DNA of 64,000 nt, taken from an uncultured Verrucomicrobiae bacterium. Lineage in GTDB: Bacteria; Verrucomicrobiota; Verrucomicrobiia; Chthoniobacterales; UBA10450. Under the pieces are notes generated by a model. It did no database searches. It was not told the origin of the DNA and saw nothing but the letters and a program-made list of their open reading frames with translations. The position numbers and the translations under genes are program-made. Positions 1,954-63,867 of the stretch are shown here, piece after piece; the first letter of the stretch is position 1, and each line of letters begins with the position of its first letter. The stretch lies in contig CAVWPA010000003.1 in NCBI GenBank assembly GCA_963756875.1, positions 800,001 through 864,000 of the forward strand, in the 5' to 3' direction.

Positions 1954-3273
1954 ATGGAAAAGATGGCCCGCGAGATTGTCGCGCGTCTGCGCGAGCGCGG
2001 TCATGTTGCCTATTTCGCCGGCGGCTGCGTACGCGACATGGTGCGCGGTGAGAGTCCCAAGGACTTCGATATCGTGACCGATGCGCAACCCGAAGCGGTG
2101 CAGAGACTTTTTCCGCGAACTTACGCCGTCGGCGCGCATTTCGGAGTCATCGTGGTCGTCGAAGGAGAATTCCAATTTGAAGTCGCAACTTTTCGCTCCG
2201 ATGGCGCTTATCTCGATCACCGGCATCCCAGCGAAGTTCACTTTTCTTCACCGGAAGAGGATGCCAGACGGCGGGATTTCACGATCAATGGCATGTTTTT
2301 CGACCCGGTCGCGAACCAGGTCATCGATTTCGTCGGCGGCCGGGCGGACATCGAAGCGAAATTGGTCCGCGCGATCGGCGACCCGGGCCAACGATTTACA
2401 GAGGACCGTTTGCGCATGTTGCGGGCGGTGCGCTTCGCCACTGTGCTCGATTACCAAATCGACCGGAAGACCTGGGAGGCCCTCGTTGCGAACGCGCCTT
2501 CAATCAACGAAATCAGTGCCGAGCGAATTCGCGAGGAGTTGTTACGGATTTTTTTATCACCCAATCGTGTGCGCGGCTGGGATCTACTCGATCAAAGCGG
2601 ATTGATGCGCGTTATTTTACCGGAACTGGATGAGATGAAAGGCTGCCAGCAGCCGGAGCAATTTCATCCGGAAGGCGATGTTTTCACGCACACGCGGCTG
2701 ATGTTGCACCTGCTACCGAAAAAAGTCTCGGTGCCGCTTGTTCTCTCGGTCCTGTTTCATGATATCGGCAAGCCGGTGACGGCAACGGTCGATGAAACGG
2801 GCCGGATTCGTTTTAACGACCACGACCGGATCGGCGCGGCGATGACCGAAGGAATCATGGAGCGATTGCGTTTCTCGCGCGCAGAGATTGACGCGACGGT
2901 GGAGATGGTGCGGCAGCATATGGTTTTCAAGGACGTGCCGAAGATGCGAGTGGCGAAATTGAAACGTTTCATGGCGCGGCCCACTTTCGAAGAGGAACTG
3001 GAGCTGCACCGGGTGGATTGCGAGAGCAGTCATCGCATGCTGGACAATTACGAATTTCTGCTGCGTAAACGGGAAGAATTCGCGAACGAGCCGATCATTC
3101 CGCTACCGCTGGTGCGCGGCGACGATCTGATCGTGCTCGGGCTAAGACCGGGACCAAAGTTTGGCGAGATTCTCGAAGCTGTGGAAACGCGCCAGTTGGA
3201 AGGCTGGCTGCACAGCCGCGCGGAAGCGATTGAGTGGATAAAGAAAGAATATTCGTTAGGCAAGAGCGACTAA
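1954..3273 (+). CDS. cca: CCA tRNA nucleotidyltransferase / poly(A) polymerase family with HD domain (alternative GTG start 1945)
   Basis: GGCVRD, DFDIVT, RRDFTING, EDRLRMLRAVRF, HPEGDVFTHT, HDIGK. Confidence 0.9.
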   Translation: MEKMAREIVARLRERGHVAYFAGGCVRDMVRGESPKDFDIVTDAQPEAVQRLFPRTYAVGAHFGVIVVVEGEFQFEVATFRSDGAYLDHRHPSEVHFSSPEEDARRRDFTINGMFFDPVANQVIDFVGGRADIEAKLVRAIGDPGQRFTEDRLRMLRAVRFATVLDYQIDRKTWEALVANAPSINEISAERIREELLRIFLSPNRVRGWDLLDQSGLMRVILPELDEMKGCQQPEQFHPEGDVFTHTRLMLHLLPKKVSVPLVLSVLFHDIGKPVTATVDETGRIRFNDHDRIGAAMTEGIMERLRFSRAEIDATVEMVRQHMVFKDVPKMRVAKLKRFMARPTFEEELELHRVDCESSHRMLDNYEFLLRKREEFANEPIIPLPLVRGDDLIVLGLRPGPKFGEILEAVETRQLEGWLHSRAEAIEWIKKEYSLGKSD

Positions 3274-62525: not shown

Positions 62526-62531
62526 GGAAAA

Positions 62532-62695
62532 AATGACGAATGACCCGCCTTCGCCAGGCTTCGGCGCGGCAGGCGAATAACGAATGACGAATGAATGACA
62601 AAATCCGAATGCCAAAAAGGAATTCTCGATCGCTCGTTCGTCATTTGAGCATTCGTGCTTCCTTCGTGCTTCGTCATTCGAATTTCGTCATTCAT
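62532..62695. repeat. Inverted 7-mer tandem array (ACGAATG / CATTCGT) between suhB and ispF
   Basis: AATGACG AATGAC..GAATAAC GAATGAC GAATGA versus CATTCGT GCTTCGT CATTCG..CGTCATTCAT. Confidence 0.8.
62545..62573 (+). mobile_element. Mini insertion element, copy 4
   Basis: CCGCCTTCGCCAGGCTTCGGCGCGGCAGG with C on both sides; removal restores the 7-mer register. Confidence 0.72.
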
Positions 62696-62700
62696 TGTCG

Positions 62701-63610: not shown

Positions 63611-63649
63611 AAAAAAAACCGGGAGGAAAATAAATTCTCCTCCCGGGTT
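63611..63649 (-). terminator. Rho-independent terminator
   Basis: Minus strand CCGGGAGGA-loop-TCCTCCCGG followed by T8. Confidence 0.85.
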
Positions 63650-63707
63650 GAAGTTAGGGATTATGACTCTGAAAGAGAATTCAGAGTCGTGATCGAGCGT
63701 TGGGCCC

Positions 63708-63767
63708 TTAATGCCTCTTTCTCTTCGCTGATTTTTTCTTTGCTGCTTTCTTTCTTTTCTTTGCCAT
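63708..63767 (-). CDS. 19-aa Lys/Arg-rich micropeptide MAKKRKKAAKKKSAKRKRH
   Basis: ATG...TAA with AAAGGGGGG RBS 8 nt upstream, TTGACA promoter upstream, terminator downstream. Confidence 0.7.
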   Translation of the reverse strand: MAKKRKKAAKKKSAKRKRH

Positions 63768-63839
63768 CGACTATTCCCCCCTTTCAATCCGCAATTGCGG
63801 GGATGTGTGAAGAGTTGGGAATGACTTCACTTAATGCGT

Positions 63840-63867
63840 TCAGTAATCGTCACAAATTGTTTGTCAA
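63840..63867 (-). promoter_or_regulatory. Candidate sigma-70 promoter for the micropeptide
   Basis: Minus strand TTGACA-16 nt-TACTGA preceded by AT-rich tracts. Confidence 0.5.

Follow-up and report, generated by a model that had tools for sequence, protein, structure and literature searches.

A conserved lysine-rich micropeptide gene in the Chthoniobacterales and its apparent kinship with histone H1-like proteins

The C-terminal tail of histone H1 and the protamines are short or disordered, very basic polypeptides that neutralize the charge of DNA; H1 has a globular winged-helix domain, and the protamines are arginine-rich and ~30-50 amino acids (aa) in length. Among Bacteria, the closest described counterparts include Hc2 of the Chlamydiae, which are grouped with the Verrucomicrobiota in the Planctomycetes-Verrucomicrobia-Chlamydiae (PVC) group. 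Within the Verrucomicrobiota, the lineage represented by genomes titled Chthoniobacterales or Candidatus Udaeobacter abounds in soils and has hardly been brought into culture. Here, we describe a putative transcription unit encoded on the minus strand at positions 63611-63867 of a 64,000-nucleotide (nt) stretch of DNA, hereafter the window, from an uncultured Verrucomicrobiae bacterium (contig CAVWPA010000003.1 of GCA_963756875.1, a 2.69-Mb assembly of 3 contigs with a completeness of 87.6%). The unit comprises a -35 hexamer, two leader hairpins, a ribosome-binding site (RBS), a 19-codon open reading frame (ORF), a hairpin in the 3' untranslated region (UTR), a 17-nt linker, and a terminator. 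We conclude from sequence comparisons that its product is probably an orthologue of an order-wide, histone H1-like polycation that has been reduced to one or two repeat units.

Several small or repetitive basic proteins provide a context for this locus. Hc2 is reported to vary in length through the gain and loss of lysine-rich pentamers (PMC2848022). Disordered regions of the KPAA or H1-like type are described as DNA-binding in vitro and as proposed tethers of structures to the nucleoid, and their repeat number varies between relatives (PMC9239181, PMC12818456). The rpsU gene of the Flavobacteriales, which encodes bS21, is described as a rare gene with a strong Shine-Dalgarno (SD) sequence in an SD-poor lineage and as autoregulated through the availability of the anti-SD (PMC13000453, PMC9976891). 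Finally, the tiny ribosomal proteins bS22 and bL37 are reported to have been recognized only via ribosome structures.

Conservation and coding capacity of the unit

The ORF (63767..63708, minus strand) begins with ATG, ends with TAA, and encodes MAKKRKKAAKKKSAKRKRH, a peptide of 2.28 kDa in which 12 of 19 residues are basic (9 lysine, K, and 3 arginine, R), giving a net charge of ~+11.6. The locus was singled out in a first-pass annotation made from the sequence of the window, which counted the same basic residues and correctly pointed out that the ORF was too short for the accompanying list of ORFs; the ORF is missing from that list because the list has a floor of 20 aa. That annotation further suggested that related genomes be searched for a conserved RBS followed by an ORF rich in K, alanine (A), and R, and such a search revealed a conserved ORF with in-frame indels and synonymous variation.

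Within the family, a 281-nt query spanning the unit aligned in all but one of the 24 other genera (23 of 24), with identities of 68-87%, mostly over 260-270 nt; unlike the unit, the DNA beyond the terminator showed no alignment between genera. Two of the 23 genus loci (L020 and L024) come from unpublished genomes, and no conclusion depends on them. A further 80 public loci were fetched via the neighboring suhB-like protein, from metagenome-assembled genomes titled Verrucomicrobia, Chthoniobacterales, or Candidatus Udaeobacter. The complete unit was present in 72 of these 80 loci, while four were cut by the end of the locus and carried a partial unit, two had too little flanking sequence, and two (L097 and L116) lacked the unit beside the suhB-like gene. 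An RBS of the AAAGGGGGG type was found in every unit, and the ATG lies 6-12 nt after its G-run in all but one of 90 distinct units. In that outlier (L012, with a spacing of 1 nt), the spacer itself contains the first ATG, and another ATG in the same frame, 6 nt on, yields a 20-aa form.

The pattern of variation within the ORF is that of a protein-coding gene. Peptides in the family range from 16 to 35 aa, and indels are all in-frame, with the ATG, the RBS spacing, and the stop codon retained; the reading frame stays open up to a stop just ahead of the conserved 3'UTR. Across 32 same-length pairs, differences at codon positions 1, 2, and 3 numbered 118, 81, and 267, respectively, and 185 of 318 differing codons were synonymous, compared to 19% expected from random single changes; the compared pairs are mutually related, and these counts are thus descriptive rather than a formal test. 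Eight loci encode the identical MAKKRKKAAKKKSAKRKRH peptide via seven DNA sequences in which 10 of the 11 variable sites are at codon position 3, and one arginine codon varies between AGA and CGC among loci that encode an identical peptide. For example, loci L002 and L003 encode the same peptide with six codon differences, including AGA to CGC. Family peptides share positionally conserved motifs, namely a central AAKKK and a C-terminal K(R/K)H, and K and R account for 41-68% of residues (median 59%; 85 distinct family units). Collectively, these comparisons show that, at the level of sequence, the gene is real and under purifying selection at the protein level.

Two other readings of the same DNA were considered and rejected. 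An antisense frame is at least 146 aa long (222 aa in L001, the locus of the window), and a frame of 80 aa that starts with TTG overlaps the ORF. Both are interrupted by stops in relatives, and the TTG start moreover shifts frame where the spacer differs in length.

Kinship with longer lysine-rich proteins and candidate targets

The leader of the unit was used to look for relatives beyond the family. The pattern CCGC-N4-GCGG-A-N2-GAAAGGGGGGA was run exactly and with up to 2 mismatches, with the backwards pattern as a control. The exact pattern matched 6 of 401 genomes across the phylum, all 6 within the order (control, 1 match), and none of the ~390 genomes outside the order. When up to 2 mismatches were allowed, the order yielded matches in 82 of 121 genomes, representing 15 of its 16 families, almost always as a single copy (control, 1 match); these relatives are titled Chthoniobacterales or Candidatus Udaeobacter. 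In the other families, the leader precedes ORFs of 33-129 aa built of PAKKA, KKAA, or KPAA repeats, as observed in 28 of 29 newly fetched loci and in loci L026, L027, L032, and L033; the match in locus L139 was judged a chance match and set aside. Downstream of each of the long-form ORFs lie a small hairpin and a terminator of the form GGGAG…CTCCC. One family (f13; loci L145-L148) encodes intermediate forms of 33-52 aa that are rich in KKAAKKK, end in RR or RRR, and have the same leader, which suggests stepwise shortening rather than a single truncation. In the genome of the window itself, the sequence AAGGGGGG occurs 21 times and precedes this kind of ORF only at this locus.

Kinship with histone H1-like proteins, a resemblance raised in the first-pass annotation, is supported in that the leader, RBS, and terminator of the unit are orthologous with those of the 33-129 aa PAKKA-repeat proteins. 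Profile searches were conducted with 20-31 aa forms and with the long orthologues as queries. Long orthologues matched Pfam HC2 (PF07382) at 27.3 (E = 4.5e-6), 18.9, 16.2, and 7.9 bits, below the gathering cut-off of 40 bits, and a 70-aa orthologue matched the NCBIfam models NF038053 (hist_H1_lk_Burk) at 26.5 bits (cut-off of 80) and NF038052 (histone_lik_HC2) at 17.1 bits (cut-off of 135). By composition, i.e., K/A- or K/A/proline (P)-rich repeats of variable number, the proteins belong to the bacterial histone H1-like K/A/P-repeat class. Since the formal tests of family membership failed, we file the peptide as one that would work like these proteins and not as a member of HC2. These observations lead us to consider it very probable that the unit is a real, translated gene orthologous to H1-like proteins.

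The family appears to have gone unannotated, in that none of 10 forms tested (20-70 aa) was present in an exact look-up against a collection of 15 billion proteins, and a homologue search with the 70-aa orthologue returned four unnamed proteins only. The literature searched contained nothing on such a peptide in this lineage. As a separate observation, the nearest neighbors of a 31-aa family form in the ESM Atlas were unnamed clusters of 29-38 aa (66-114 members each) at 0.96-0.97, with low recognition (1374); similar mini-polycations may be common in metagenomes.

What would such a peptide do? The explanation that we favor overall, with confidence somewhat above an even call, is that the unit encodes an extremely short H1-like K/A/P-repeat protein that binds polyanions, with DNA as the most likely target. 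According to this model, the product would be an intrinsically disordered polycation of 19 residues and a net charge of ~+12. Its coding part would have shrunk to 16-35 aa in this family while sister families retained PAKKA-repeat forms of 33-129 aa, with the same promoter block, leader hairpins, G-rich RBS, and GGGAG-type terminator presumably driving the long forms in those families. The peptide would contact polyanions electrostatically and without sequence specificity, and binding to chromosomal DNA would neutralize charge and compact the nucleoid, in the manner of H1 tails, chlamydial Hc2, and KPAA peptides. That the peptide is translated in vivo, is abundant, and targets DNA is what we infer from these comparisons. 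Among the possible targets, and by analogy, we favor DNA or the nucleoid over RNA or the ribosome, and the latter over polyphosphate; DNA or the nucleoid is placed first because the order-wide family resembles Hc2 or an H1 tail and because nothing else in the genome fills this role. When run against the genome of the window, which is 87.6% complete, the HC2 model returned no match at E ≤ 1, and no other K/A-rich ORF was identified among its ATG-started ORFs of 12-85 aa. For DNA or the nucleoid as the main target, considered by itself, we regard the case as evenly balanced.

Several points weigh against this explanation. None of the 20-31 aa forms (five of them in the case of Pfam) had a match at E ≤ 10 in NCBIfam or Pfam, and the long forms fall under every curated cut-off, so that the link to H1 and Hc2 rests on composition and could be convergent. 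At 17-19 aa, a peptide may lack the length with which H1 tails bridge segments of DNA. Nor does an H1-like protein explain why the linker and the terminator, described below, are so strongly conserved in sequence. Moreover, KPAA-type regions are reported to bind polyphosphate granules (AlgP; PMC9239181) and specific mRNAs (PhaF; PMC12818456) as well, and DNA is therefore not the sole candidate target.

The strongest competitor, which we nonetheless consider unlikely, is that the peptide is an RNA- or ribosome-associated polycation, either a tiny ribosomal protein akin to bS22, bL37, eL41, or bTHX or a PhaF-like modulator of translation that binds mRNA leaders, possibly the hairpin of its own leader. 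Its size and charge are as in tiny ribosomal proteins, and it is encoded by a single-copy gene, near-universal in the family, with an extended SD in a genome where SD words are weakly enriched. The KPAA region of PhaF is described as binding mRNAs upstream of the SD and activating translation (PMC12818456), and an invariant hairpin lies 4 nt ahead of the RBS block. However, ribosomal micro-proteins are fixed in length and sequence, whereas this peptide varies from 16 to 35 aa in the family and up to 129 aa in the order through gain and loss of repeats. The association with the ribosome raised in the first-pass annotation found no positive evidence in the searches for a ribosomal family, a PDB chain, or bS22. 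The 20-31 aa forms match no ribosomal family, and a profile of 20 family peptides recovered no chain at E ≤ 10 among 177,635 distinct PDB sequences, a search in which low-complexity filtering may hide weak similarity. When the genome was searched in six frames with the bS22 model (NF047430; cut-off of 34 bits), the best match was elsewhere, at 13 bits, and the ORF was not among the matches.

A second tiny basic ORF was observed in the same genome (34 aa, MGSLKKRRK…; G000:C2:94519-94623, minus strand) and also in locus L119 (223-324). It aligns with positions 1-29 of 31 of the bS22 model at 11.8 bits, compared to the cut-off of 34 (E = 0.2), and is unlisted in the genome-wide bS22 search; it may represent a divergent, as yet unconfirmed bS22.

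A further variant that we regard as a long shot is that a genetically encoded oligolysine of 16-19 residues would serve as a translation factor, bound to the ribosome or to mRNA, and would gauge its own level via the order-wide invariant leader hairpin and the G6 RBS. Underlying this reading is the strong, invariant, G-rich SD in an SD-poor genome, which recalls the logic of rpsU. Among 969 crudely called starts, SD-like 4-mers occurred 9-14 nt upstream at 101 vs ~68 per 6-nt bin, a weak enrichment, and an extended SD was found at only a few dozen starts, including that of one gene with a product whose first residues resemble those of ribosomal protein S10; the assembly lacks the 3' end of the 16S rRNA. 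If true, this would be a PhaF-like or bS21/rpsU-like loop operated by the smallest such protein known, in a very common soil lineage.

Similarly improbable, in our judgment, is that the peptide binds polyphosphate and organizes granules or contacts between polyphosphate and chromatin, as does the KPAA tail of AlgP. The KPAA C-terminal domain of AlgP, which has the same composition, is reported to be required for the spacing of polyphosphate granules (PMC9239181). On the other hand, AlgP also carries a folded N-terminal domain that is absent from the peptide, and this locus shows no link to a polyphosphate gene, the ppk genes not having been searched for.

Transcript architecture and neighboring sequence

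On the minus strand, the unit opens with a -35-like hexamer, TTGACA (63862..63867), within a promoter-like block that is conserved in a 26-locus alignment and reads TTTGACAAAAAAAAyGTGAyGATTACT in relatives; its counterpart in sister families is TTGACG-N17-TATTCA. The best positional candidate for a -10 is the non-canonical TACTGA (63840..63845), 16 nt after the -35. Of the promoter proposed in the first-pass annotation, the TTGACA hexamer is therefore present, whereas a promoter scan of the minus strand returned no sigma-70-type site, being blank because no canonical -10 lies 16-18 nt behind the -35. The leader continues with a predicted hairpin (GTGAAG ... CTTCAC; 63807..63830) whose loop varies in length among relatives. 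Both of its arms are conserved in sequence, and no covariation is therefore available to test it. The second leader hairpin is the palindrome CCGCAATTGCGG (CCGC-AATT-GCGG), which had been noted in the leader and lies at 63789..63800, 4 nt before the RBS block. Its four CCGC/GCGG pairs show no change in any of 30 sequences, the loop being variable, and covariation therefore cannot separate an RNA hairpin from a DNA palindrome. Hits to the leader pattern with mismatches include U·G-type variants and one both-sided change in this stem, a weak hint that points to RNA. The SD-like AAAGGGGGG follows at 63776..63784, 8 nt before the ATG, where the annotation had placed a strong RBS.

Downstream of the ORF, the 3'UTR contains a hairpin with a 9-bp stem and a 6-nt loop (63665..63688). 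The first-pass annotation had placed an 11-bp hairpin at 63663-63690; the hairpin exists, but with nine contiguous pairs, and 11 are reached only by counting across one mismatch. In an alignment of 60 family sequences, from which unpublished genomes were excluded, all 7 tested pairs were changed on both sides, 98.3% of cells were paired, none of 500 shuffles reached the observed covariation score, and all slid controls scored far lower. The 3'UTR hairpin is a real RNA structure. It is followed by a single-stranded linker (…AAYCCYAACTTCAA; 63648..63664) that is conserved in the family alignment and by an intrinsic terminator (63611..63647), as had been predicted, in which CCCGGGAGGAGAA-TTTA-TTTTCCTCCCGG forms the stem (63619-63647) ahead of eight T residues (63611-63618). 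With 12 pairs, 7 of them G-C, and the T-run, this site conforms to the definition of an intrinsic (Rho-independent) terminator. One terminator-like site was found in the window compared to 1.4 expected in shuffles, a chance level; the argument against chance comes from the conservation of the unit in other genomes. The stem is retained in 26 of 26 and in 60 of 60 sequences, with 98.1% of cells paired in the latter, and is nearly invariant as sequence. The linker and the arms of the terminator (CCCGGGAGGAG / CCTCCCGG) are conserved in sequence across genera beyond what a terminator needs, and the GGGAG…CTCCC theme is retained across the whole order. We rejected the idea that terminators of the GGGAG type are a habit of the lineage, since a GGGAG or GGAGG arm occurred in none of 34 other perfect-stem terminators of the genome (in a strict scan that also misses that of the unit).

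The conservation of the UTRs indicates that they are under selection, and the structures conserved in the leader and the 3'UTR most likely determine how stable the mRNA is and how fast it is translated. The first-pass annotation had offered a dual-function structured RNA of about 220 nt as an alternative, of which the structural component was borne out by the 3'UTR hairpin. We consider it improbable that the ~220-nt transcript doubles as a regulatory RNA, e.g., as a small RNA (sRNA) derived from the 3'UTR with the linker as its seed. In its favor, the UTRs are conserved as much as the ORF while flanking intergenic DNA does not align, the compensatory changes in the 3'UTR hairpin are those described above, and the hairpin, 15-nt conserved linker, and U-tailed terminator resemble the architecture of an sRNA. 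In addition, the fold predicted for the 225-nt transcript is more stable than those of shuffled sequences (z = -3.18). However, no family in Rfam 15 reached its gathering score, the best being LhrC (27.2 vs 110 bits) and His_leader (18.6 vs 49 bits; E = 2.3), and no Hfq gene was found (best match, 12.2 vs a 27-bit cut-off), an absence that is unproven in a genome that is 87.6% complete. The only long-range pairing in the predicted minimum free energy fold, between the RBS and the linker, was rejected since it was no better than with shuffled linkers (82 units; mean z = -0.21, with 2 of 82 below -1.64), and variants of it examined by eye showed no compensation. Stable 3' hairpins are also ordinary stabilizers of mRNA, and no target was identified.

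Much less probable still is that the ORF is untranslated and that its purine-rich stretch is merely part of a conserved non-coding element. A/G-rich, low-complexity sequence readily remains open, but this would not account for the synonymous-biased variation (including AGA to CGC), for indels that are in-frame only with the ATG, RBS spacing, and stop kept in every complete unit examined, or for the continuity with ORFs of up to 129 aa.

Least probable of all, and largely refuted by synteny, is that the ORF is the lysine-codon leader peptide of an attenuator controlling the downstream suhB-like gene, since the order of short lysine-rich ORF, hairpin, and terminator, the upstream and co-directional position of the unit relative to that gene in this family, and the weak His_leader match are offset by a suhB-like gene that is nearby in only 9 of 33 loci of other families (and upstream on the opposite strand in locus L027), by ORFs of up to 129 aa in relatives, by the lack of a visible alternative antiterminator pairing, and by ~160 nt of unconserved DNA between the terminator and the next start. 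A coaBC-like gene is adjacent in 5 of the 33 loci. That a promoter block and a terminator of its own accompany the unit, both kept where neighboring genes differ, likewise argues against an attenuator and agrees with the stand-alone arrangement originally proposed. Judged from these sequence comparisons, the unit is a stand-alone, single-copy, protein-coding gene.

Other features of the surrounding sequence were recorded. Between the ispF-like and suhB-like genes (window 62531-62696), direct and inverted copies of AATGACGAATGA-type words yield mirror-image 'FVIRHS/IRMTK' ORFs on both strands, and the region resembles an intergenic repeat of the repetitive extragenic palindromic type. On the other side of the unit, the coaBC-like region (L001:1951-3224; window 63850 onward and past the window end) consists of two overlapping minus-strand ORFs, one of 207 aa that is flavoprotein-like (2601-3224) and one of 248 aa (1951-2697), with an overlap of ~97 nt. 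The arrangement could reflect a pair of genes, a frameshift, or an error of assembly, the gene names having been read from translations. Of the 22 sequencing runs found, 20 contain 0.10-0.16 of the sampled words; these are mostly soil metatranscriptomes and constitute no evidence of expression or habitat.

Comparison with described systems

Should the peptide be produced, few conserved chromatin-type or polyanion-binding gene products of Bacteria known to us would be shorter, and it would illustrate the extent to which an H1-like protein can be reduced while remaining under selection. Routine annotation overlooks the gene, and its product would also escape tryptic proteomics. The unit is a compact, highly conserved expression cassette that combines a leader hairpin, a G-rich RBS, a covarying 3' hairpin, and a sequence-conserved terminator.

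The tiny ribosomal proteins bS22, bL37, eL41, and bTHX share with the peptide a length of 20-35 aa, a K/R-rich composition, and the ease with which gene callers miss them. However, the peptide differs from them in having no match to a model or PDB chain and in its variation in length and repeats, which is unlike that of ribosomal proteins. In rpsU of the Flavobacteriales, as in this unit, a strong and conserved SD precedes the gene of a small basic protein in a genome where SDs are little enriched; the parallel is limited to this logic, with no relation in sequence, and other genes here carry good SDs too. The resemblance to the histone H1 tail and to protamines is one of kind, and no homology is claimed.

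Hc2 (HctB; PF07382) and the peptide are both K/A-rich, low-complexity polycations that vary in length by short lysine-rich repeats, and HC2 is the best Pfam match of the long orthologues. Hc2 is 165-237 aa in length compared to 19 aa for the peptide, however, and the long forms score at most 27.3 vs 40 bits while the short forms are unmatched; there is also no sign here of developmental regulation. The KPAA regions of AlgP and PhaF and the proteins of NF038053 likewise have K/P/A repeats, predicted disorder, and variable repeat number, with a best score to NF038053 of 26.5 compared to its 80-bit cut-off. In AlgP and PhaF, the repeats form tails on folded N-terminal domains of proteins of >250 aa, whereas here the tail-like sequence is the entire product.

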